The notes under the pieces: model-generated | The model's input: only the letters and a program-made list of their open reading frames with translations | Databases searched by the model: none | Told to the model about the DNA's origin: nothing | Program-made: the position numbers and the translations under genes | Part shown: one piece after another, positions 1 to 19,163 of the stretch | How the letters are laid out: the number at the start of each line of letters is the position of its first letter | How positions within the stretch are numbered: position 1 is the stretch's first letter | DNA from: an uncultured Solirubrobacteraceae bacterium | GTDB taxonomy: Bacteria; Actinomycetota; Thermoleophilia; Solirubrobacterales; Solirubrobacteraceae | Assembly (NCBI GenBank): GCA_963813625.1 | Contig: CAWFAC010000014.1 | Location: forward strand, 5,187-69,186 | DNA: 64,000 nucleotides | Reading direction: 5' to 3'

Positions 1-1361
1 GCCTCATGCTCTTCCGGAGCCACCCTGATCGACGGCGTGAACGGCAACTCATTACAACCATCCATCCCAAGCCCCTGGCCCGCGGCGCTCAACCACGCGT
101 ATTCAGCCGTCAGCACGCTTTCGGGGTCAGCCCACGAATCCGCTTCCATCGAAGAGGTCAACGGTTCGCTACCCGGGTTGGCCGGGCACGACGCGGGCAA
201 CGTCAAGAAAGGCTGCTGCGGCACTTCACTCAAGGCTGGACAGGACTTTTTGATCTGCTTGGAGAATTCGCCGCCGGCGACGCATTCCCAGCCGCGGGAT
301 GCATTGTGGCGGGGGTCTCCGGGTACGCCCCACAGCGTCACCTGGCTGCTCAACAACCCCGCGACCTGCGTGGCATTGCTCACGCTCGCTATGACCCCGT
401 AGTCCTTGCCGCTGCGCACGGAAGTGTCAATGATGATCGGGACCTTGCCGATCACCTCCAAGCCGAAGCGCGCAGGCTCGCCCTGTGCGGGCACGAGATT
501 GAACACGGGTACCGTCCTGGTGATGACGTGCACGAGGGGTTCGTGGACCGTCACTGCGGCGACCCCGACGACCGAGCTTGGGGAGCACCCGTTCGTTTCA
601 TCGACGAATGCGCTGAATTCGACCATCGAGCACTGCGCGGCGGCGGTCGGGTTGCCAACGAGCCCTGGCGGGAGGTTGAAGCGCAGGTCCTTCGGCAGCG
701 CGACAGGGTAGCGTTCCCGCGTCTGGTTGAGGATCACCGTAGTCATCAGCTGGAACGGATGCGAGCCAGCCTGCGTGGCCGGCGCGCCTTCGGCGCCAAG
801 CGGCAGCAGCTCATAGCCCTGCAGCCCGAATGGGATCGCTTCGCCGTCGACGTGCACCTCCTGGATGCTCGAGACCTTCGCCGCGCCGCCGCCTTCGGCG
901 CTCAATTCCTCGGGCAGCGAGACGATCGTGCCTTTCGGCTCTTCGACCTTCACTTCGATCGGAACCTCCATCCGTTCATACGGATACAGGACGCCAGCGT
1001 AGGTGCATCTGACGAACGTCGTGGCCGTGCATTCCACCGGCATGCCGTGTATGCCTGTCGGCGGGAAGCCGGTCACGGTCAGCCCTTCGGGGAGCTTGGC
1101 GGTGATCACGACCGTGTTCTTGCCCGCGCCGTTGATCGTCTCGTCGCTGAGATTGCTCGCCGCGATGTAGAGTTCCCCCCTGCCTTCTGGCGGCAGGTAG
1201 CTCGGCACGACTTCCGATTCGATCCGCCACCATGGTGTTTCCCCAAGCGCGATCGCGGGCGCCACAAGCGCGAGCGTAATCAGCACCACGACTCCCGCGA
1301 GTGCCACCGACAGCGAGGGAGTCCGGCCGGATCGAGCACGCGCCGGCTGCAGCGCACTCAT
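1..1361 (-). CDS. Large secreted protein, 5' part (runs off the left edge; absent from the ORF track)
   Basis: Hand translation from ATG 1361: MSALQPARARSGRTPSLSVALAGVVVLITLALVAPAIALGETPWWRIESEVVPSYLPPEGRGELYIAASN...VVITAKLPEGLTV... Open to base 1. Signal peptide, Ig/DUF11-like start, Cys pairs. ATG overlaps the TGA of the upstream gene (ATGA). Confidence 0.85.
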   Translation of the reverse strand, partial: MSALQPARARSGRTPSLSVALAGVVVLITLALVAPAIALGETPWWRIESEVVPSYLPPEGRGELYIAASNLSDETINGAGKNTVVITAKLPEGLTVTGFPPTGIHGMPVECTATTFVRCTYAGVLYPYERMEVPIEVKVEEPKGTIVSLPEELSAEGGGAAKVSSIQEVHVDGEAIPFGLQGYELLPLGAEGAPATQAGSHPFQLMTTVILNQTRERYPVALPKDLRFNLPPGLVGNPTAAAQCSMVEFSAFVDETNGCSPSSVVGVAAVTVHEPLVHVITRTVPVFNLVPAQGEPARFGLEVIGKVPIIIDTSVRSGKDYGVIASVSNATQVAGLLSSQVTLWGVPGDPRHNASRGWECVAGGEFSKQIKKSCPALSEVPQQPFLTLPASCPANPGSEPLTSSMEADSWADPESVLTAEYAWLSAAGQGLGMDGCNELPFTPSIRVAPEEHE

Positions 1362-4300
1362 CGTGTGCTCCTTGGCTTGGCGTGTGCGGTGGAGGTCTTC
1401 TTGGTGTTGCTGTTTTTGCTGGCTTTGGTTTTGGGTGTGTAGAGCTTGCGGGTGTGCGCTTCGCAGGCTTGGCGCTTTCGCTTGGAGTGGGGGTGCGCTT
1501 GCTTGCACGCTTGCATGGCGGCCGCGAGCTTCTGCGCCTGGGTCAGGGGTTTTGCGGTGGTTTTGGTGTCTTTGACTTCTCCTTTGGCGGGCGGGGCGTT
1601 CCCGGGGCCGGTGAACGTCGCGGTCCCCGACGAGCCCGCCGGGGCCTGCTGCGCGGGGGACGCCGGCCGGCAGCCTTCGGTGCTCGCGCACGGACCGGGT
1701 TCTTGCGCTGGCGGGCTCAGACACGGCGACTGCGGCGTGCAGACGCGTGCGTCATAGATGTCAAACGCGGTATCCGTGTCTTGGGGCAGCAGTTGCGCGG
1801 CGGTCAAGAAAAACACGTCGCTGCCGCTAGGGGTCGTTTCCAGGAACGCCGATTCCCGGCTCGAACTACCCGAAGAGAGCAAGGAGACGCACCCACCCGA
1901 GGTGCTCTGGCAGCTGCCGATGCCGTTGGGCTCGTACTCGTAGACATCCTCCTTGTGGTTGGAGGCCTGCGGCACCAGGTCATCGGGGCTGTTGAAGAAC
2001 AGCCGCCCATCGTCGAGCAGATACCGCGACTGGTAGAGCGCGCTCCCGGATTCCTGGGAGGTCCAGCCGGGTACGTTCCCAGCGATGTAGCGTCCGATCC
2101 ACACCTTGCGCTGGTCGACGAGCAGCCCGAGGCCTTCGCCGGCTTCCTGGGTATCGAGCACCCCCACGGGCCGCGCGCCGGTGGGGTCACACGACGCGCA
2201 CGTCAGGCTCGCGGCCTGTGAGTCATACAGGTAGACCTCCTCATCGCGCTTGCCGCTGTTCTGATCGACGTTGTCATACCCCGTCGGGCTGCCATCGGAC
2301 ATGAACTCCAGATACCGCCCGTTCGGGGATACCCGCGCGGTGACGTACGCCGGGTCGGCGAGCACTTCGCCTTCCCACTCCGGTTTGTCTTCCTTGGAGA
2401 GCTCGGCGATGAACGTCGTTTCCCACACGCCGCCGGCTTCGTGGATGTCATACAGGTTGTATCCGCCGGCTTCGGCGTGTTCACCGTGCCCGCTTTCGTT
2501 GCCCGCGAGTACGCCGCGGGCGACCAGGTACACGCTCGAGCCGTCCCTGCTCACGCCGAAGATTAGGCCCTGAACGGCCGCGTGTTCAGCTTCGTTGGAA
2601 TCGACCGTGAGGTCTTTCAGATGACACGCGAGCTTGCCGGCTTCTTCGACGATTTCACACTCGTACAGGTCAGCCTTACCCAACGTCGCTTCCGCGGTGG
2701 AGTCCGCGGTCAGGCGCTGCTTGTCGGTGAAGAACACCCGCGACCCATCCGCCGTCGCGGCGTGGAACTGCGCTGCGCCCACCCCGGTAGGTGGCGTGAC
2801 GCCTTCCGCTGGCGCGTCCAGCTGCAGCGTTTTCCCGATGGCCGTGTCGCGCATGTACAGGTGCCCCAGCTGCCCCGTTTCTTCCGGGGTGGTCCAGATC
2901 ACTCGCGAGCCATCGGCTGAAATCGACTGGGCGGCCACCCGGTAGTAGCCCGCTTCCACCTTCGCCGCAGGCAACCCGTCCGGCAGCACGCTCACCAGCT
3001 GCAGCATGCCGTCAGACCACTCGTAGAGCCCCGGTGCGGAGGACGGTCCCGTAAGCGCGACCTTGGAGGCCAGCAGCACGTGCGCCAGATCTGGCGAGGC
3101 GTCCACGAAACGAACGGCGTCCTGAAAGATCGTCCCAGCGGCCACGTTTGCTTCGGTGACCAGCGGCAGATACCCCGGTGCGAAGAAGCCGCTGTTGGCC
3201 TCGGCTGCCCTGTAGTCGGCTTCTTCGCCGGCTTCAGGCGACACGGGTTCATCGGGACGCAGGTACATCGTTTTCTGGACGACACCGGGCGCGAGTGGTG
3301 GTTCCGCCCCCACGCCTGGTGGTTCGAGCAGCGCGAGCGCGAGGTCGCGCGAGAAGAACTGGTATTCCGGCGGCTGGCCCCCACCGACGCCCTGGGCCCG
3401 CGACTGGGGACTGACGATGTCCCGCGAGCTCCAGCTGCTGCTGCCGCGCGTGGCGAGCACCTGCTGCACTTCGGGGCTACGGTTGCCCCTTATTTCTCCG
3501 GTGATCGCGCCACCGGCGACGTAGGTAAGTGCGTCGCCGTTTTCGGAGGCGAGGATCCAGCCGCCTTCGCGCGTCAGCGCCTCGACCGGCGCACCGTGCT
3601 TTTCCGGCGGTGAGACCATCTCCCACGCGCGTCCGTCCGCCAGCGCGAACGCCGCCGGCGGCGGCTGCGTCGTGAACGTGTGCTGCACCCCCATCGCGGT
3701 GCCCAGCGAGTTGCTCGCGAGCACGCGGTAGAAATAGGTCGTCGACGGCGTCAGGCCCTGCACAGTCGCGCCACCGGGGACATCGCTTTCGCCCGCGCCG
3801 ATATCCGCACCCGGTGGCGCCGGCACACTCGTGCAGCCCGCCGGGTCTGCTTCGCAGCTGCTCGTGCCGTACTGGAAGTAGTAGTGCGTGTCGTGCCCGA
3901 GCGGGTCGACCTGCGTCTGCAGCGTCGCCGCGGTGGCGTTGACTTCCGTGACGGACTCGCTGTCGATCGACGCCGGCGGGATCGTCGTGAACGTCTGATC
4001 CGCGGTCACGCTCGTGCCCGCGCTGTTGCTCGCGAGCACCCGGAAGTGGTAGGTCACGCCGAGCTTCAGGCCTGTCAGCGCCGCGGAGACCGCGACCGGT
4101 GCTTCCCCAGCGACCAGCTTACCGCCGCCCATTGGCGCTTCGGTCCCATACGCGGTCGTTTCGCCGTATTCGAAGTGGTATTCGCTGGCCAGCTCATCCG
4201 GGTCGACCTTCGCTTTGATCGTCGCCGTTTCGTGCCCGATCCCACCTGTCGGTTCCGTGGTGATCCGCGGCGGGCCGGAGGTCGTGAACTTCGCGCCTTC

Positions 4301-5947
4301 CCCAACCGTGCTGCCGTAATGGTTGACCGCCACCAGCCGATAGAAATAGGTCGTATTCGCCACCAACCCCGACAGCAACGCCTGCGCCTTGACCGCTTCT
4401 CCACCCGAGCCCGCGTTCGTTACCGGTGTCCTATTGCCGTAGCTGCTGCTCGGGCCCCATTCGAAGAAGTATTCGGCTTGCACGCCACCAGGGGTCAGCG
4501 ACCCCGTCAACGTCGCTGCAGTCGGCTGCGCGTTTTCGACCTTGCCCGTCGCGACGCCTTCCACCGCCGCCGCGCTCGCAAACGACAGGCCCGCGCCGAC
4601 ATTCGTGCCATCCACATCTTCACCGACCAGCCGGAAATAGTAGGTCACCCCAGCCTGCAGTTCGTCGAGATCCGCCGCGACCTTTTCTTCTACGCCACCC
4701 GCGCTTTCGGCTACCGGCGTACTCGACCCGTACGCTTCGCTGGTACCCCATTCAAAGTGGTAGCGCACCGCTTTGCCTTCGCCGTCGACCACACCGTTCA
4801 GGATCGCCGTGGTGCGCGTCAACTTCGACGCGCTCTTGCTCGTCACATCCGCCACCACCACACCCGCCCCGAACACATCCACCACACCCGCCGTCGCATC
4901 CGCCACATACACATCCCCCGCCCCGGAGATCGCGACCCCGCGCGGTTCCCCCAGTCGCCCAGCAGGGGTCTGCGTGATCCAGCCAACCCATTCCCCCGCC
5001 GCGGTGAACTCGCTCACGACACCCTGTTCGCCCTCCCCCACCAGCAAATCACCGCTCGTTTCATCGACCGCGACCGCGCTGACATTGCCTTCTTCTTCTT
5101 CCTTACCACGAAACGACCCCTGCGGCGAACCAGACCCCGTCACCCGCACTTTTTCATACACCCCAGACGAGCTGAACTCATACACAGCGCCCAACGCACT
5201 ATCCGCCACAAACTCCCGGCCACTAGCCGCATCCACCGCGACCGCATTCGGTTCCACGAGCTTCACGCCCGACAAAGGCCGCACGAATTCCCCTTCCGCG
5301 GCTTCATCCGCCCCCGCCGCGCGCGGCTTGAACACATCCACCATCCCACCTTCCGCGCCTTCCGCACGACTTTCACGATCAACCACCAACACATCCCCCG
5401 CTGACGGATCGCTCGCACTCACCGAGTTATCTACCGCCACACCCGCGACTTCCCCGAATTCCCCACCCGGAACACCCGCACCCGCCCATTCCGACAGAAG
5501 TTCATAACCCCCCGCACCATTCGGCTTGAACACGAGCACAACGTCCCCCGCCGGCTGTACGACATACAGATCTCCATTCGCTTCATCTACCGCCACAGCC
5601 ACCGGTTCTATCTCTTCTCCGAACTGCGTCAGAAACGTCCCCGTCGAGCTGTACACATCCACCACTCCGGCTCCGGGGTCACCCACGAACACAGCCCCGC
5701 TCGCATGATCGACCGCCACAGCCACGGGTTCGGACAGCACCGTCCCCACCTGCGCTTCACGCAAACTCGACACAAACCCGTGCCCAACTGCCGCAGACGC
5801 CGGCACCACACTCCACGCCAACGACAACAGCGAATAGGCACAGACCACGACAAACCCCGCAAGCCCGCCGAAACCCCGTCGGCCACGCGAACCACCGCCC
5901 CAAGCGCCTGTCGATAAACCACTCATCACACCCTCACTAAAACCCAT
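1358..5947 (-). CDS. 1529-aa secreted multidomain surface protein: NHL-like propeller, four FnIII-like repeats, PD40/TolB-like propeller, basic Cys-containing C-terminal tail
   Basis: Signal peptide ending ASA-A. Repeated P.AVAVD...G.vyVad units. Four T.ATL.g.v.p.G....YyFEyG....YG...GL...tTYyyRlva.N modules at about 3665-4860. TAGGCT -10 lies 6 nt before ATG 5947; alternative ATG at 5926. Confidence 0.88.
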   Translation of the reverse strand: MGFSEGVMSGLSTGAWGGGSRGRRGFGGLAGFVVVCAYSLLSLAWSVVPASAAVGHGFVSSLREAQVGTVLSEPVAVAVDHASGAVFVGDPGAGVVDVYSSTGTFLTQFGEEIEPVAVAVDEANGDLYVVQPAGDVVLVFKPNGAGGYELLSEWAGAGVPGGEFGEVAGVAVDNSVSASDPSAGDVLVVDRESRAEGAEGGMVDVFKPRAAGADEAAEGEFVRPLSGVKLVEPNAVAVDAASGREFVADSALGAVYEFSSSGVYEKVRVTGSGSPQGSFRGKEEEEGNVSAVAVDETSGDLLVGEGEQGVVSEFTAAGEWVGWITQTPAGRLGEPRGVAISGAGDVYVADATAGVVDVFGAGVVVADVTSKSASKLTRTTAILNGVVDGEGKAVRYHFEWGTSEAYGSSTPVAESAGGVEEKVAADLDELQAGVTYYFRLVGEDVDGTNVGAGLSFASAAAVEGVATGKVENAQPTAATLTGSLTPGGVQAEYFFEWGPSSSYGNRTPVTNAGSGGEAVKAQALLSGLVANTTYFYRLVAVNHYGSTVGEGAKFTTSGPPRITTEPTGGIGHETATIKAKVDPDELASEYHFEYGETTAYGTEAPMGGGKLVAGEAPVAVSAALTGLKLGVTYHFRVLASNSAGTSVTADQTFTTIPPASIDSESVTEVNATAATLQTQVDPLGHDTHYYFQYGTSSCEADPAGCTSVPAPPGADIGAGESDVPGGATVQGLTPSTTYFYRVLASNSLGTAMGVQHTFTTQPPPAAFALADGRAWEMVSPPEKHGAPVEALTREGGWILASENGDALTYVAGGAITGEIRGNRSPEVQQVLATRGSSSWSSRDIVSPQSRAQGVGGGQPPEYQFFSRDLALALLEPPGVGAEPPLAPGVVQKTMYLRPDEPVSPEAGEEADYRAAEANSGFFAPGYLPLVTEANVAAGTIFQDAVRFVDASPDLAHVLLASKVALTGPSSAPGLYEWSDGMLQLVSVLPDGLPAAKVEAGYYRVAAQSISADGSRVIWTTPEETGQLGHLYMRDTAIGKTLQLDAPAEGVTPPTGVGAAQFHAATADGSRVFFTDKQRLTADSTAEATLGKADLYECEIVEEAGKLACHLKDLTVDSNEAEHAAVQGLIFGVSRDGSSVYLVARGVLAGNESGHGEHAEAGGYNLYDIHEAGGVWETTFIAELSKEDKPEWEGEVLADPAYVTARVSPNGRYLEFMSDGSPTGYDNVDQNSGKRDEEVYLYDSQAASLTCASCDPTGARPVGVLDTQEAGEGLGLLVDQRKVWIGRYIAGNVPGWTSQESGSALYQSRYLLDDGRLFFNSPDDLVPQASNHKEDVYEYEPNGIGSCQSTSGGCVSLLSSGSSSRESAFLETTPSGSDVFFLTAAQLLPQDTDTAFDIYDARVCTPQSPCLSPPAQEPGPCASTEGCRPASPAQQAPAGSSGTATFTGPGNAPPAKGEVKDTKTTAKPLTQAQKLAAAMQACKQAHPHSKRKRQACEAHTRKLYTPKTKASKNSNTKKTSTAHAKPRSTR

Positions 5948-5973
5948 TTCACAAGCCTAGACCCGCCGCAGCA

Positions 5974-6005
5974 TGTGTGGGGGCGCGAAACGCGCCCCCT
6001 ACACA
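5974..6005. terminator. GC-rich hairpin between the two secreted-protein genes
   Basis: GGGGGCGCG-AAA-CGCGCCCCC perfect 9-bp stem, extended by TGTGT/ACACA. No U-tract. Confidence 0.5.
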
Positions 6006-6051
6006 CACCGCTTTCGCTGTCAGCGCATCTACGCTGCTCTCAACAGCGCGT

Positions 6052-6969
6052 CTACGCTTTGATCTCTACTGGTTCTCCACTGATCTGTTTGTTGACGTTC
6101 GTGATCGACTCACCGGCTTTCGACCACTTCGTCGTCTCATAGGGCCGTTCGCTGCTGAAGACGAATGATTCGAGCAAATCGATGTGCTTACCTTCGAAGC
6201 TGCTCGGCACATTTTCGTGGTTTTCGTTGACCGTGTAGACCTGCGTGAATTCGGTGTTCATTTCGTTGACCGGAGTGATCGGAGAAATGATCCCGTCATA
6301 CCCGCCGGTCTTTTCCGGAGAATATACAGCGCCTTCCTTCGCGTTGCCTACACCAACCACCGTGGTGATCGACCCACCGATGCAGGTGAACTGAGCGAAC
6401 CGTCCATGCTTAGCCGTCGGTTCCAGCAGTACGCCCACGTCCTTCGTGGTTTTGTTGATATAGCCGAGTTCACCCTTCAACGTGTTAGTCTGGATTTCAC
6501 CTTCGACTTCGGTGTTCGAGCAGGGCACGGCTCCAAGTAGCTTGCACCCGCGGAAGATCACCGAGATGTTAGCCACACCCTTCGAACCCGACGCTTCACC
6601 ATGGTTCACCTCGGATTCACATTCGACTGAAATCGGCTCGCCGAGGAAGAGGTTTTCTTGTTCTCCGGCGTTGCAGTGCGGTTGTCTCACTTCGCCGGGT
6701 TCACAGTAGTGGTATTCGGCGGACAGAATGCCAAGGCCGCCTCCGCCTTCGAATTTTTTCTGGCTGGGACTGACCTGGCTGCCTTTCCGCCATTCGAACG
6801 TGCCGGCACCTTTTTTGGCCTTCGAGGTGCAGTTCGAGTTGGCGTATTTACCGCCTTCCTTTGCGTAGCACTGACCCCATTCAGGCAGCGCCGACGCGCT
6901 TGTCGCGGCCACCGCTACGACCGCGCACACCGCGATCAGACAGAGTCCTAGCATCCTTACATGTCTCAT
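6052..6969 (-). CDS. 305-aa secreted Cys-containing beta-rich protein, possible structural subunit
   Basis: MRHVRMLGLCLIAVCAVVAVAATSASA signal peptide then LPEWGQCYAKEGGKYANSNCT. GGAG upstream of ATG 6969; the ORF-track start at 7143 is too long. Confidence 0.85.
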   Translation of the reverse strand: MRHVRMLGLCLIAVCAVVAVAATSASALPEWGQCYAKEGGKYANSNCTSKAKKGAGTFEWRKGSQVSPSQKKFEGGGGLGILSAEYHYCEPGEVRQPHCNAGEQENLFLGEPISVECESEVNHGEASGSKGVANISVIFRGCKLLGAVPCSNTEVEGEIQTNTLKGELGYINKTTKDVGVLLEPTAKHGRFAQFTCIGGSITTVVGVGNAKEGAVYSPEKTGGYDGIISPITPVNEMNTEFTQVYTVNENHENVPSSFEGKHIDLLESFVFSSERPYETTKWSKAGESITNVNKQISGEPVEIKA

Positions 6970-7249
6970 TCTTCCATCACTCCTTTTACCCCTCGAGTTA
7001 TTATCGATCGGCGCCCCGACTTTCCTGATGGAGAACCCGTGACACCGGTCACCTGCGACAGCACGCCCAGTCGAGACCGACGGCCCCTGCACCGATGCGC
7101 ACTCGCCATCGGATGAGCACACGTGGTGCCCACAACGACGCACGTTTTGTAAACGACGGCCTCACCCGCCACATGCAGCGCGCCACCACGGCTCACCTGA
7201 CCGCGGCGCTCCGCCTTCCCGTCAGGCAGATCGCTCTGCGTCCGGCTCA

Positions 7250-8104
7250 TCACGCGACCTGCCGAATACGGGCGGGCGCCGAGGCTTGCGCACGCTCAGC
7301 CCCGTCGAGCCCGAGCAGCTCGATCACACGTCGCCCCGACGGAGTCAAGAGCCACGCGTTTTCGCGCCTGGAGCCGCTGCGCGGCGCGACCTTGGCAATC
7401 AAACCCCGCCGGGCTAGCCGGCGCAGCAAATGCGAAATCTGCCCCTCATCGCCGATCCCTGCAGCCGCGGCGATCTCGCGGTTACTCGAGCGCGGCGCAC
7501 GCGTGATCGCGCCCAACACCAAGGTCGTGCGATGCGTAATCGGAACCGGAGAGGCGGCTGCAGACGGAGTCGGACATTCGGCGGCGCCCGAGGGCGCCCG
7601 GCCCGCGGCCAGGGAGTACCCCGCTAGCTCTGCCTCCGCGGCGGCCCGACCGAGATACGGCCTGACGATGAACGACATCATCGACGGCGCCAGCTCCACC
7701 AGCGCACCGCCGTCGCCCTTGAGCAGTCGCGTGCGGATGACCGAGAAGACACCGCCGATCAGCAACTCGGCCGTCAGCTCCGGCTCGCACATGACCTCCG
7801 CGATCGCCTGAGGGCTCCCGTCGTCCATCAGCACCGTCAGCACACCGAGGACACGCTGCTTGCAGCGAAGCGCAGCAGCATCCTGCAGCGGCGCCTCGAA
7901 GACGAGCAGGCGACCCCACCCAGGCTCATCCTCAAGAAACCCAAGCAACGCCACCATGCCCGCACGAACCCGATCTAGCCAGCGCTCCTCACGACCAGCC
8001 GCCGCCTCGACAGCGACCGACATCCGTGCAAGACCCTCCTCGAACGCCGCCGAGAAGCACTCCTCCGCGCTTCCGAAGACCTCGTAGAACGCGCGCTGTG
8101 ACAC
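7250..8104 (-). CDS. TetR-family regulator with C-terminal winged helix; body only, N-terminal helix displaced by inversion
   Basis: In-frame upstream reads ...RTAAAHAG-VSQRAFYEVFGSAEECF (second half of a TetR HTH). C-terminal SNREIAAAAGIGDEGQISHLLRRL...ENAWLLTPSG wHTH. In-frame TGA at 8176-8174 in the present orientation. Confidence 0.85.
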   Translation of the reverse strand: MSQRAFYEVFGSAEECFSAAFEEGLARMSVAVEAAAGREERWLDRVRAGMVALLGFLEDEPGWGRLLVFEAPLQDAAALRCKQRVLGVLTVLMDDGSPQAIAEVMCEPELTAELLIGGVFSVIRTRLLKGDGGALVELAPSMMSFIVRPYLGRAAAEAELAGYSLAAGRAPSGAAECPTPSAAASPVPITHRTTLVLGAITRAPRSSNREIAAAAGIGDEGQISHLLRRLARRGLIAKVAPRSGSRRENAWLLTPSGRRVIELLGLDGAERAQASAPARIRQVA

Positions 8105-8123
8105 GCCCGCATGAGCGGCCGCT

Positions 8124-8149
8124 GTCCGCGGTAGACGGGGGTTACTGCC
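8124..8149 (-). repeat. Left inverted repeat (26 bp)
   Basis: GTCCGCGGTAGACGGGGGTTACTGCC, exact reverse complement of 8541-8566. Confidence 0.95.
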
Positions 8150-8366
8150 CCCTAGACCACTTGACTCTGACGCTCAAGTAAAGACGGGAAGTACCCCACC
8201 CCGGCTTCGATCCTGGGCGTCTGGAGCCTTGATCGCAACGGTCATGACCCTGTATCTTGGCGATCTGAACGCCGATGGCCGCTTGACAAACTCGTGGCCA
8301 TATGTTTCCATACTTCCCACAGAGCAGCAGTTCGTTTCGTGTGGATGTGGGAGAGGAGAAGGGATT

Positions 8367-8591
8367 ATGAGGGGACGCGAAGAGCTCACCATGGACGGCA
8401 AGACCCGAGTCACGTGGGTCCTCAGGCCCTCCCAGAATACCCAGCGAACACGCCCACAACGCGTAACGACGGGCGTCGGCGAGCGACGCGACGCGCTGCG
8501 CGCCAAGCTCATTGCGGCCACCGTCGAGCTCGCCGCAAACGGCAGTAACCCCCGTCTACCGCGGACGCGGTACGTGCGTATAGTCCCATAA
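8367..8591 (+). CDS. Displaced 5' fragment of the TetR regulator (truncated OFF-state product)
   Basis: AGGAG at 8354-8358 lies 8 nt before ATG 8367. Reads MRGREELTMDGK...GERRDALRAKLIAATVELAANG (TetR helix 1) into the right repeat, then stops at TAA 8591. Confidence 0.7.
   Translation: MRGREELTMDGKTRVTWVLRPSQNTQRTRPQRVTTGVGERRDALRAKLIAATVELAANGSNPRLPRTRYVRIVP
8541..8566 (+). repeat. Right inverted repeat (26 bp)
   Basis: GGCAGTAACCCCCGTCTACCGCGGAC. Confidence 0.95.
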
Positions 8592-9044
8592 ATATCGGGA
8601 TTTTAGCGCTCCTTCCCGCGCGCTTCCCCCGTCCATCTGCAATCCGAAGTGCCGAGTAGCATCGTTGCCCGGCGCACGGCAGTTCCAGCTCAAGAGTCGA
8701 CGCCCCGCCAAGCTGACGGCGCGACCGCGTTGCAGCCGACGGCGAGCGACTCGACGCGTCCCTTGCGCACCGGGATCGCCTAACCCGCGGGCTGCACCAA
8801 CCTTCTCTCACGTATATGGGCACACGCCCGCAGCGAGCTCAGCCGCATCACCTATCTCGAGGATCGCATTCCCACGCGACCACAGCTGAACTGATACGGT
8901 ACCTAATCGAGACGCGGCGACGCCGAGTTGCGAAGCGTCCACTGCGAAAGCGCCATCACGGGCTGAACCGGGAACCCTGCGCGTCCGCTAGCTCCCAGGT
9001 TGGGAGGTCCGCGACGGCCGCAGCGAGATGTTCCCGGCCACGAG

Positions 9045-9239: not shown

Positions 9240-9653
9240 TCAGTCGATCGCGACTAGCACCGAGCGGACCAGCTCGGCGAGCTGCTCAGGCGTCGTGCCG
9301 GCACTCAGACCAAGAATCCAATCGGCGAGTTGGCGATCTGATGCCTGCACGCGGAAGCCGTTGATCTCCAGGAAGGCGAGCATCGCCACCAGCGCCGTGC
9401 GCTTGTTGCCGTCGATGAATGGCTGGCCCTCGGCAATCCCATGCGCGAGGACTGCCCCCTGAAGCGCGAGATCTGCGGCCTCATAGTGCGCGTAGGCGGC
9501 GGGGCGTGCCAGCGCACTCTCCAACCCATCGCGATTGCGCAGCTGGTCCTGCGCCTGCGCTGCCGTGGCAGCGACGATCAGGCCATACAGCTCAAGTACA
9601 TCCTCCAGCGTCAGGTGGACCAGCTCGAGCTCGTGCGGCTGGTCGTCCCCCAT
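9240..9653 (-). CDS. Fic/Doc family toxin (death-on-curing type)
   Basis: LESALARP...LAHGIAEGQPFIDGNKRTA Doc-type motif, directly downstream of the antitoxin. Confidence 0.9.
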   Translation of the reverse strand: MGDDQPHELELVHLTLEDVLELYGLIVAATAAQAQDQLRNRDGLESALARPAAYAHYEAADLALQGAVLAHGIAEGQPFIDGNKRTALVAMLAFLEINGFRVQASDRQLADWILGLSAGTTPEQLAELVRSVLVAID

Positions 9654-9658
9654 CCTCG

Positions 9659-9913
9659 CTACGAAGGCGAAGCGTCGACGTCAGGGTCGTGGTCGGCGAG
9701 GATCTGCAGTGCCTCTCCATGTTCGCCGACTACTCGTTGGCCGATATCCCGTATCCGCTCGCGGACCATCTCTGTTGACATGATCCGAAGCCCGCCCCCG
9801 GGTAGCTCCTCGACGAGCACCGAGGAGCCGGGCGCATAGCCGCGCGCCTCGAACTCCCGCGGAATCGAGATGACGTTGCTGTTCCCCACGCGGCGAACCT
9901 TCACGACCTTCAT
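9659..9913 (-). CDS. AbrB/MazE-type antitoxin
   Basis: MKVVKVRRVGNSNVISIPREF swapped-hairpin motif, 84 aa. TATACT at 9927-9922 lies 8 nt before the ATG. Confidence 0.88.
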   Translation of the reverse strand: MKVVKVRRVGNSNVISIPREFEARGYAPGSSVLVEELPGGGLRIMSTEMVRERIRDIGQRVVGEHGEALQILADHDPDVDASPS

Positions 9914-13822: not shown

Positions 13823-13843
13823 AGGGCGTTCGCAGCCCGACAG

Positions 13844-13927
13844 TGCCCGGGGTGGGATTCGAACCCACATGCCCTCGCGGGCCATCGATTTTAAGTCGAT
13901 TACGTATACCTATTCCGCCACCCGGGC
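13844..13927 (-). tRNA. tRNA-Leu(TAA)
   Basis: GCCCGGG acceptor stem, ATCGA-CTTAAAA-TCGAT anticodon arm, long variable arm, GTGGGTTCGAATCCCAC T arm. Confidence 0.95.
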
Positions 13928-14028
13928 CGGGCCGCGGATCAGTCTATGCAAGAGGATCACGCAACTGTAGGAGCAACTTTCGCCTTGCTACGGTGTCATT
14001 AGCAACGACAGCAGCTATCGGTCTGTCC

Positions 14029-15621
14029 ATGGAGGTTTCCGCTCTCTCACACCCACGCAGCATGCCGGGCCTTCGCGGCCCTTCTGCTCTGCTGCGCCTG
14101 CACTCGGACGAGCGCCTGATCGCGCTCACCCGCAGTGGTCAGCACGCCGCCTTCGAGGTCCTCTGCGCCCGCTACCAGACCCGCCTGCTGTCCTTCTGCC
14201 GGCACATGCTCGCCTCGCGCGAGGATGCCGAGGACGTCCTGCAGGAGGTGTTCGCAGCCGCCTTCAACGCCGTCCTCGCCGACGAGCGCGAGATCAACGT
14301 CCGGCCGTGGCTCTATCGGATCGCGCGCAACCGCTCGCTCAACCACCTGCGCCGCGCGTCCGCCATCGGCGTGGACTCGATGGACGTGCACTTCGCCGAC
14401 AACGGTGTTTCGACCAGCGACAAGGTGCTGCGCCGCGAGAGCTTCCGCGAGCTCATCGCCGACGTTCACGAGCTGCCCGAGACCCAGCGCACGGCCCTGC
14501 TCCTGCGCGAGATCGACGCTCTCTCCTACGACCAGATCGCCCACGCGATGGAGACCACCGTTCCGTCGGTCAAGTCGTTGCTCGTGCGCGCCCGCATCTC
14601 GCTCGCCGAGGCCGCCGAGGCGCGCAAGCTCAGCTGCGAGGAAGTTCGCCTCGAGCTGGGCGAGCTCGCTGAGGGCTTGGCCAAGCTGAGCGCACCCGCC
14701 CGGCGCCACGTCCGCGGCTGCGAACGCTGCTCCTTCTTCAAGAAGCAGCTCAAGCACAACAACCACGCGCTCGCGATGATCATGCCCGTCGGTCCGCTGC
14801 TGCTCGTCAAGAAGCTGCTGCTCGCAAAGCTCGGCACGACCGCCTCCGCCGGAGGCGCGCATGTGGCCGGCGGCGCCGGCGCCACGATGGGCGCAACCGC
14901 CACCGCCGGAGCAGGAGCTGCCGCCACCGGCGGAGGCGGCGTCGCCGGCGGCATCATGACTGCCGGGGCCGGAGCCCTCGCCACCAAGGCCGTCGCCGGG
15001 CTCGCCGCAGCGGCCATCGTCACCGCCGGCGCCGTCGCAGCGGATCACGCCGTGGTAGTTCACCACCAGCGTCCACGCGTCGTCGCCTCCGTCCCCGCGA
15101 GCGTGCCCGTCGTCCACTACGCCAGCGAACCCGTCGTCGTCCACGAGGCGCTCCAGCCGGTCACCGCCGGGACCTCCGCCGCTCGCATGGCCGCAGCAGC
15201 GCTCGCCGCACACTCTGCGCGCCACCGCAAGACGACCAAGGCGATCGTGACCGCTCCCGTGGTGCCCGCCACCGTCCCGCCGCCCACCTCCGCCGCCGCT
15301 CCCGCCGCGGTGCCCACCACGGCGACCGCCAAGCCCGCGGCTCCGCAGCCGACCGTGCAGGTCACCGAGGTCACCAGCCAGACCACCGAACTTCCCGCCG
15401 CCGCCACCACCACCACCACCACCGGGCAGACAACCACCTCGGGCACCGAAACCACGACTGCCCCAACACCACCCCCGCCCGCGTCGCAGCTGCCGACCGT
15501 CGAATCAGTGCCCGTTCCTGAAGCCACGCCCCCGCCCGCCAGCCAGCCCACCACGCCCAGCCCCGCTGAAGGCCAGAGCACGCAGAACGACGGCGGCACC
15601 GAAGCTCCTCCCGCCGGCTAA
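14029..15621 (+). CDS. ECF sigma-70 factor with fused zinc-finger (ZAS-like), hydrophobic segment and Pro/Thr-rich tail
   Basis: SDERLI..AEDVLQEVF..WLYRIARN (sigma2), LPETQRTALLLREIDALSYDQIA (sigma4), C...HVRGCERC. Confidence 0.88.
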   Translation: MEVSALSHPRSMPGLRGPSALLRLHSDERLIALTRSGQHAAFEVLCARYQTRLLSFCRHMLASREDAEDVLQEVFAAAFNAVLADEREINVRPWLYRIARNRSLNHLRRASAIGVDSMDVHFADNGVSTSDKVLRRESFRELIADVHELPETQRTALLLREIDALSYDQIAHAMETTVPSVKSLLVRARISLAEAAEARKLSCEEVRLELGELAEGLAKLSAPARRHVRGCERCSFFKKQLKHNNHALAMIMPVGPLLLVKKLLLAKLGTTASAGGAHVAGGAGATMGATATAGAGAAATGGGGVAGGIMTAGAGALATKAVAGLAAAAIVTAGAVAADHAVVVHHQRPRVVASVPASVPVVHYASEPVVVHEALQPVTAGTSAARMAAAALAAHSARHRKTTKAIVTAPVVPATVPPPTSAAAPAAVPTTATAKPAAPQPTVQVTEVTSQTTELPAAATTTTTTGQTTTSGTETTTAPTPPPPASQLPTVESVPVPEATPPPASQPTTPSPAEGQSTQNDGGTEAPPAG

Positions 15622-18703: not shown

Positions 18704-18958
18704 TTAGGAGCCCTCGCCCAGCTCGCGCAGAGACTTCCCCACGTCGGAGGCCTGCTCGGACGCCGGTCTGTCCTGACCTGGCGACGGCGTGCCCGCTTCG
18801 CGATGAATCTCGAGATAGATCTCCTTCCGGAAGACAGGAACCCTCTGTGGCGCCTGAATACCGATGCGTACCTTCTCGCCCATAACCGACAGCACCGAAA
18901 CCTCGATCTCATCCCCGATCATGATGCTCTGGTTGGACTTGCGCGTCAAAACCAGCAT
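18704..18958 (-). CDS. csrA: Carbon storage regulator CsrA
   Basis: MLVLTRKSNQSIMIGDEIEVSVLSVMGEKVRIGIQAPQRVPVFRKEIY. AGAGGAAGG upstream of ATG 18958. Confidence 0.95.
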   Translation of the reverse strand: MLVLTRKSNQSIMIGDEIEVSVLSVMGEKVRIGIQAPQRVPVFRKEIYLEIHREAGTPSPGQDRPASEQASDVGKSLRELGEGS

Positions 18959-19163
18959 TTCGGTGCACCTTCCTCTTTGTGCCAATTGGCGACCCCGGCG
19001 CGACCCGCCACCGCCGATGCGCCTAGCATAGTCCCAGGACCGGGGGAACGCGATCCCCATATCTCAAAGCCCTGCCGAGGATCGCCACAGCCGCCCTGCA
19101 GGACGGGCACCGCACACGCCCGCCGCGCCTCGCGGGCGCTTACGCTAGTCTCCCGGACCGTCC

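Follow-up and report, generated by a model that had tools for sequence, protein, structure and literature searches.

Can the gene for a transcription regulator be taken apart and put together again by inverting a short piece of DNA? This question is raised by a locus on contig CAWFAC010000014.1 (NCBI GenBank assembly GCA_963813625.1) of an uncultured Solirubrobacteraceae bacterium, of which a stretch of 64,000 nucleotides was analysed (positions 5,187 to 69,186 of the forward strand; hereafter called the window, with positions counted from its first letter). Between 7250 and 8591, a gene for a TetR-like regulator is split across a pair of inverted repeats. An earlier sequence-only reading of this DNA, made without database searches, had proposed a switch in its OFF state. 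The analysis described here makes it probable that the window holds, in its OFF state, one member of a family of switches that work by site-specific DNA inversion, in which a trans-acting recombinase would exchange strands within a 7-bp spacer. Invertible switches have been well studied in gut and pathogenic bacteria and are hardly known in soil Actinomycetota.

Architecture of the split regulator gene

The inverted repeat can be read directly from the window sequence. Its two arms (8124-8149 and 8541-8566) are exact over 26 bp, as had been claimed, and no other inverted pair with up to three mismatches exists in the window, the chance expectation being zero matches. They form the ends of a putatively invertible segment of 443 bp (8124-8566). 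The left arm belongs to the regulator gene body (7250-8149, minus strand), which encodes helices 2-3 of a helix-turn-helix (HTH) domain (AAAHAGVSQRAFYEVF), a TetR-like helical core and, after a linker, a putative winged helix of the MarR/IclR kind at the C-terminus. As oriented in the window, the frame of the body reads VFT, a stop and then ASESSGLGGSNPRLPRTAAAHAGVSQRAFYEVF; it is shut by an in-frame TGA at 8176-8174, helix alpha-1 is absent, and no Shine-Dalgarno sequence precedes the GTG of the body.

Helix alpha-1 (ERRDALRAKLIAATVELAANG) is encoded on the plus strand within the segment, at 8481-8543. It is part of a small open reading frame (ORF) of 74 codons (8367-8591, plus strand), which crosses the distal site, terminates in ERRDALRAKLIAATVELAANGSNPRLPRTRYVRIVP with its stop codon at 8589-8591 and corresponds, in the OFF state, to the 5' cassette of the regulator. 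There are two candidate starts, ATG 8367 and ATG 8391, of which the latter aligns with the conserved start of the family. A purine-rich ribosome-binding region (GGAGAGGAGAAGGG, 8350-8363, plus strand) lies upstream of ATG 8367, and the family consensus GGAGGGAA...ATG is found at the same place.

Inversion of 8124-8566 in silico places a 58-codon 5' cassette with ribosome-binding site, ATG and helix alpha-1 in frame with the minus-strand body and yields one continuous ORF of 357 amino acids (aa), which comprises a TetR fold and a putative winged helix. A body starting in mid-HTH behind the stop, a helix 1 with ATG 8367 running into the right repeat and a flipped ORF of about 357 aa had all been described in the sequence-only reading, and each was found again. 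Its term 'intragenic' was only half appropriate, as one arm is inside the gene and the other outside, and the element is better called a 'partial intergenic' inverton. An independent short-read contig matches 8414-8802 exactly and spans the distal arm; the junction at this arm is therefore not an assembly artefact.

A family of related loci

A scan of representative genomes retrieved 224 relatives, and the best 80 of these were examined together with the window, giving 81 loci. The 80 relatives come from about eight metagenome-assembled genomes of Solirubrobacterales/Solirubrobacteraceae, with at least 15-20 copies per genome that are often 11-13 kb apart. In the protein search they appeared as a large paralogous family, and most called proteins start with M[VA][AT]RAGVS, which is in the middle of the HTH. 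In 79 of the 81 loci, the body has one arm at its 5' end and the second arm, inverted, 300-440 bp farther upstream; the homologous segments at these loci measure 325-466 bp.

When these segments are flipped in silico, at least 45 codons are opened upstream of the body in 75 of the 79 loci (median 107 codons), compared with an open upstream frame in two of the 79 (median 5 codons) in the observed orientation. The N-termini obtained by flipping are conserved and follow the pattern MGDGIQINRVAERFSSHT...ALRExLIAAxVEVVAEGGDPRLxxTVATRAGVS. The 17 codons of helix 1 show a frame-specific constraint, with a ratio of nonsynonymous to synonymous substitution rates of 0.60 in the cassette frame; reading the other two frames gives 0.97 and 1.48. 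The window locus is one copy of a genome-wide family that is almost always OFF.

Each locus has only two sites; the small ORF ends a few codons past the distal site, and no alternative body is located there. A shufflon or multi-cassette inversion system was considered and rejected, with two sites and one body per locus. Protein P0261, a candidate for a second ON form, was also rejected and proved to be an OFF read-through.

Putative recombination sites and their spacers

From inside to outside, the family site consists of a 10-bp inner arm (GACCCCCGTC), a 7-bp spacer (TnGnnnA) and a degenerate inverted outer arm, which is TACGGTGGCC at the gene side, where it codes for T-V-A, and GTCGCGGGCC at the distal side, where it is non-coding. 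In the window, the proximal core site (8117-8143, minus strand) has the inner arm AACCCCCGTC (8143-8134), the spacer TACCGCG (8133-8127) and the outer arm GACAGCGGCC (8126-8117), and it encodes the regulator residues N-P-R-L-P-R-T-A. The distal core site (8547-8573, plus strand) has the same inner arm (8547-8556) and spacer (8557-8563), followed by the outer arm GACGCGGTAC (8564-8573). Across the family, outer and inner arms come closest to being reverse complements of each other when 7 nt lie between them, with 6.9 of 10 matching positions at proximal and 6.7 of 10 at distal sites, versus about 3 of 10 at other spacings in both site classes. The distal sites show this 10-7-10 dyad despite a non-coding outer arm. 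The layout resembles a tyrosine-recombinase core site, in which two inverted arms of about 10-13 bp surround an overlap of 6-8 bp.

Of 73 loci, 63 have the same 7-nt spacer in both arms. The 73 loci carry 68 distinct spacers in all, and no spacer is repeated within one genome. Since paralogues with near-identical bodies carry different spacers that are nevertheless matched between the arms (L027/L034 with 99.4%, L036/L062 with 94% and L009/L016 with 90% identity), the spacers evolve fast and in concert. Identity within a locus would be needed for strand exchange, and the difference between loci would block cross-recombination.

Four loci of genome CAWIWW (L046, L058, L068 and L079) form a divergent subfamily, in which the cassette encodes MDGGSKIKD...ATVNEPATASDPRL and no recognisable helix alpha-1. 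The two inner arms of this subfamily differ by one base (GAGCCCC versus GACCCCC).

Orientation of the family members

A systematic strand call of the loci gave 74 OFF, one ON and four uncalled; the window, too, is OFF. The ON locus, L068, shares its contig with the OFF paralogue L046, and a 328-bp segment is inverted between the two at 90% identity, with both flanks colinear. Because the inner arms of the CAWIWW subfamily differ by one base, the exchange of arms at L068 is visible: compared with L046, each inner arm sits beside the outer partner of the other, and the changeover falls exactly at the sites. Once L068 is flipped in silico, it is colinear with L046 over 780 nt.

In assembled contigs of three independent soil runs, position 7718 of L068 was joined to 7998 on opposite strands with 96-98% identity, and these contigs show the L068 locus in the opposite orientation. 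L046 was present in the same three runs in the reference orientation only. Another copy, L081 (the contig of the relative P0004), is the only fused ON form among the relatives, and a stretch of 1030 nt in it runs colinear with the flipped window (76.5% identity). Looking for either orientation among related loci, as had been suggested earlier, thus led to an inverted copy and to a fused one. Judged from these assemblies, both orientations exist in nature with their breakpoints at the repeats; this holds for members of the family, and the window locus was seen only OFF. Independent contigs reproduce the OFF junctions at the window and at other loci, and misassembly is therefore excluded.

Fold of the joined protein

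With the fused relative P0004 as query, a full scan of 1.8 billion representatives returned 3756 relatives. Those at 35-40% identity are contiguous proteins of 300-350 aa, and their match begins at helix alpha-1. These contiguous distant homologues keep the 13-residue G...GVS spacing (for example P0166, ...LQRRRLIAAMVQVVAERGVTNVSVANVVTYAGVSRRTFYEIF), which is the HTH spacing pointed out for the flipped ORF in the sequence-only reading. The flipped window protein itself aligned with P0166 from residue 45 across the junction at 41% identity, and a phmmer search aligned residues 44-116 of P0004, again across the junction, with the solved TetR structure 5ovy_B. An AlphaFold model of P0004 (predicted local distance difference test score 77.5) has helices at 40-58, 65-70 and 75-81; the small ORFs had been left out of the multiple sequence alignment used for prediction, as MAFFT misplaced them. 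The top Foldseek matches of this model were all of the TetR family, the best being FadR (3whb) with a target TM of 0.78 over 188 columns. The ON form is accordingly predicted to adopt a TetR fold, with an alpha1-alpha3 HTH packed on an all-helical core. Because the homologue, structure and model alignments all span the junction, the OFF-state body corresponds to an otherwise complete TetR fold minus helix alpha-1.

For the C-terminal domain, the match to MarR_2 reached 23.1 bits, which is below the cut-off of 27. The C-terminus of P0004 aligned with the MarR protein PcaV in a PDB match (E = 0.012), residues 259-332 of the model have an H-H-H-strand-strand-H topology, and matches to HTH_IclR are precomputed for relatives of the regulator.

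Proposed mechanism and rival explanations

The anatomy of the locus, its conservation throughout the family, the preservation of the frame, the covariation of arms and spacers and the natural copies in both orientations are all observed. The proposal that the window shows the OFF state of a switch with its crossover site in the HTH coding sequence is borne out by the homologue alignment, by the layout of the 79 of 81 loci and by these natural copies. The 443-bp segment carries helix alpha-1 of the regulator and its conserved N-terminal extension, together with the start codon, the ribosome-binding site and a block that resembles a promoter. It lies between two inverted 27-bp core-type sites, and one of these falls within the coding sequence, in the turn that links helices 1 and 2. 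Strands would be exchanged in the 7-bp spacer by a recombinase encoded in trans, and a tyrosine type is the most likely because of the site layout and the requirement for spacer identity. Inversion would join the cassette in frame to the body, and the 357-aa regulator would then be made and its gene probably transcribed (ON). In the observed orientation (OFF), the 74-aa ORF points away, and the body is devoid of promoter, Shine-Dalgarno sequence and helix alpha-1. The switch is strongly OFF-biased; the reversibility and the rate of the inversion are inferred, as are the class of the enzyme, the promoter and the targets of the regulator. The private spacer of each paralogous switch should restrict recombination to the arm pair of its own locus. 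As each regulator heads a module of large secreted proteins, which would be its targets, the switches would probably give a sparse, phase-variable expression of alternative sets of surface or secreted proteins.

Several findings weigh against such a switch or against its frequent use. Orientation among the genome loci is nearly uniform, with a single ON call. A profile of the flipped N-termini, searched against 5.8 billion proteins, had as its top 120 matches exclusively stand-alone small ORFs of 57-113 aa, which speaks against frequent switching. The read-based check that had been suggested confirmed the assembled OFF junctions at the window and revealed no flipping there, as assembled contigs at 2-5x depth contained no inverted reads. 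Inversion joints were likewise missing from the shallow assembled contigs of L006 (2-7x for the window and L006 together). Since the depth is shallow and only assembled contigs were used, their absence at these two loci is uninformative on rare flips. In JGI metagenomes, a search for the DNA pattern of the ON junction gave one unrelated chance match (L082). The ON copies have irregularities of their own. L068 carries an extra 'TC' just before the core site (7990-8000), which puts the cassette out of frame with the body; this may mark a true pseudogene or be an error in the nanopore consensus. L081 has a spacer of 4 nt (positions ~205-235), 3 nt below all other sites, within the perfect palindrome CCGTCTCGAGACGG, and may represent a locked ON allele. 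A sigma-70 consensus scan of the cassette found no canonical promoter.

The expectation that the flipped ORF should score better against Pfam TetR_N was disappointed as well. Flipped and unflipped protein alike reached 18.3 bits, below the gathering cut-off of 24, and matched profile positions 23-47 only. This test is insensitive to the flip because the local Pfam match covers helices 2-3 and never helix 1. The suggested search for orphan recombinases was equally unsuccessful: none was found among the 50 ORFs of the window, which are mostly housekeeping genes, and no recurrent one in the flanks of the 81 loci, where 113 non-conserved flank ORFs were inspected and a motif scan was run.

The motif scan detected five diverse, unrelated phage-type integrases near five of the 81 loci, which is about the background frequency. 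One of them, a 495-aa phage-type tyrosine integrase at 5402-6886 of L002, has its end about 700 bp from the distal arm of the L002 switch. The others are unrelated integrases near L020, L021, L024 and L050, of which the copy at L024 is fragmented.

Part of this evidence would also fit a fixed, non-switching architecture, in which the ORF of 57-74 aa and the truncated regulator are two divergent genes and the 27-bp palindromes are operators or other protein-binding sites. Nearly all assembled copies share one orientation, the small ORF is conserved and mostly stops right past the distal site, each site is a dyad that a dimeric regulator could bind, and no recombinase was found among the window ORFs or, as a recurrent gene, in the locus flanks. 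Operators do not explain, however, why spacers are identical within each locus although they change quickly from one near-identical paralogue to the next, why in 75 of 79 loci the small ORF stops in frame at the very point at which the HTH of the body starts, and why the fusion matches the helix spacing of contiguous homologues. The natural inverted copies break exactly at the sites, and the GTG of the body lacks a Shine-Dalgarno sequence. A fixed architecture is considered very unlikely. Even less credible, and close to negligible, is a one-off fossil inversion, a pseudogene or an assembly artefact. The window copy indeed has no intact regulator ORF, and its reads are too shallow to reveal flipping, but this layout, including intact cassette ORFs and matched arms, recurs at 79 loci in about eight genomes and in hundreds of metagenomic proteins, and independent short-read contigs reproduce the junctions.

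A further rival is a true inversion switch that is run by a serine invertase of the Hin/Gin/Mpi type or by another enzyme class, or a one-way programmed rearrangement. With 26 bp, the window repeat is as long as a hix site, and both of its sites are dyads. A single master serine invertase, Mpi, is established to control many Bacteroides promoters, and the extreme OFF bias would fit strong directionality. Serine invertases need identity only in the central 2 bp, whereas here the whole 7-bp spacer co-varies, as is predicted by the homology check in the overlap of tyrosine recombinases, and the 10-7-10 layout is typical of core sites of the latter. These variants are regarded as unlikely, and inversion by a tyrosine recombinase acting in trans is the reading preferred here. 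Two further candidates were rejected: terminal repeats of a miniature inverted-repeat transposable element or insertion sequence, as the segment holds the N-terminus of the gene itself, and a long-range RNA stem, which fails to explain an in-frame split gene and natural inverted copies.

Signals in the cassette and the distal flank

Within the cassette, a conserved non-coding block (8283-8321, plus strand) points in the same direction as the small ORF and contains TTGACA (8283-8288), TATGTT (8301-8306) and TTCCCACA (8314-8321). It is at least 80% conserved across 78 cassettes and takes the family form CTTGACAAA-N10-TATGTTCT...TTTTCCCACA, upstream of the ribosome-binding site. The block is a putative promoter or regulatory region. 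Of the promoter proposed in the sequence-only reading, the TTGACA is present and conserved across paralogues, but CATACT is not a conserved element and its assignment as a -10 box is unsupported; the conserved TATGTT begins only 12 nt after TTGACA. Scans against Rfam and for intrinsic terminators gave nothing significant.

The distal flank (8574-8680, plus strand) is conserved in most paralogues with the pattern GTCGCGGGCCC..CGTAATCCCGCAT..GGGGTTTTCG..CTTCCCAC..TCTTCCCACA, and the window has the related CTTCCCGCGCGCTTCCCCC around 8611-8630. As a guess, this flank might hold sites for accessory factors or a transcription stop. A TTCCCAC(A) motif occurs once in the cassette and twice just beyond the distal site in most paralogues (in the window at 8314-8321 and 8611-8630), at about -100, -400 and -500 from the gene start across loci, and could be an accessory-factor or operator site.

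Downstream module and neighbouring genes

Downstream of the regulator, a module on the minus strand (1358-7143) encodes two secreted proteins, one of 363 aa without a known family (6052-7143) and one of 1529 aa with NHL/Fn3 repeats (1358-5947). Both genes are kept beside the regulator in 78-81 of the 81 loci. Family-wide, three genes follow downstream on the same strand; their products are a secreted protein of about 330 aa that belongs to no recognised family, an NHL/Fn3 protein of 1300-1500 aa that is likewise secreted, and another large protein. The module is the likely regulated cargo of the switch. Its G+C content in the window (1358-7143) is lower, with 0.55-0.62 versus about 0.70.

Just upstream of the switch, at 9240-9913 on the minus strand, a 137-aa Fic/DOC-family protein is encoded directly behind an 84-aa MazE/AbrB-like antitoxin, and the two are likely a toxin-antitoxin pair. 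Other loci have a PIN-domain or HipA-like gene where the window has the Fic/DOC pair. Farther away in this high-G+C genome, a homologue of the CsrA family of global regulators is encoded at 18707-19063 (minus strand; Pfam E = 1e-23). The first 250 residues of a 592-aa ORF at 13843-15621 (plus strand) contain sigma-70 regions 2 and 4, and a long uncharacterised C-terminal extension follows.

Comparison with known systems and significance

Partial intergenic or gene-altering invertons likewise have one repeat in a coding sequence and one outside, and their inversion swaps the 5' end and the promoter to which a gene is joined. In published surveys, TetR-family regulators were depleted among predicted programmed inversions, and Solirubrobacterales were not mentioned (Milman et al. 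2023, PMC9881135; Chanin et al., PMC10028968). Unlike the invertons surveyed, the loci described here have the crossover inside the HTH of a regulator, dozens of copies per genome and locus-specific spacers. For uncultured soil Actinomycetota, nothing comparable was found in the literature searched.

The capsule promoters of Bacteroides fragilis are a well-known case of many invertons under one master invertase, Mpi. RecV-controlled switches of Clostridioides difficile have been described (PMC8890394, PMC9286219). Both systems share with the present family many dispersed segments with a conserved repeat core and surface or secreted products, and a single recombinase in trans is presumed here as well. 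In contrast, the Mpi and RecV switches flip promoters upstream of genes and assemble no protein, whereas here a protein would be assembled. No locus-specific crossover spacers have been reported for their repeats, and their hosts are gut Bacteroidota and Firmicutes rather than soil Actinomycetota.

In fimS of Escherichia coli, a promoter segment of about 300-450 bp with short inverted repeats is inverted by the tyrosine recombinases FimB and FimE and is OFF-biased through directional recombination. The loci described here have a similarly short invertible segment, short inverted repeats and a strong OFF bias. However, fimS is intergenic, exists as a single locus and has its recombinases adjacent, while in the present family one end is intragenic, the locus is multi-copy and no adjacent recombinase was found.

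Closer in principle are the vsa locus of Mycoplasma pulmonis and the mba locus of Ureaplasma, where inversion in the 5' coding region joins an expression cassette with promoter and N-terminal part to a gene body. Inversions of the Ureaplasma mba type are described in PMC3047005. In vsa and mba, one expression site is shuffled among several bodies for surface proteins, whereas here each cassette is paired with one body, which belongs to a transcription regulator, and the other state is OFF.

The use of spacers recalls the heterospecific lox and FRT variants (such as lox511 and lox2272), which have conserved arms and differing spacers, and of which only sites with identical spacers recombine. 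Those variants are engineered, whereas the at least 68 distinct spacers found here are a natural set that appears to insulate in a similar way.

In a more far-reaching and clearly tentative version of the mechanism, one trans-acting tyrosine recombinase recognising the GACCCCCGTC arm might serve at least 20 mutually insulated invertons per genome with private, diversifying and concertedly evolving spacers, and each regulator might activate its own giant NHL/Fn3 module, so that a cell might show just one or a few out of many surface sets. If true, this would amount to one-of-many antigenic variation in bacterial form, with split transcription factors as its building blocks.

Taken together, the evidence points to a large, previously undescribed family of on/off DNA switches in uncultured soil Solirubrobacterales. 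With a recombination site built into the DNA-binding domain of the regulator, inversion would make or unmake the protein and not affect transcription alone. If confirmed, the family would explain the hundreds of regulators annotated as N-terminally truncated beside orphan ORFs of 57-65 aa, and it would be a warning that consensus assemblies conceal such states. It would also offer naturally occurring orthogonal recombination sites that work with a single recombinase and, for the biology of these abundant uncultured soil bacteria, it would mean a large phase-variable repertoire of secreted proteins.

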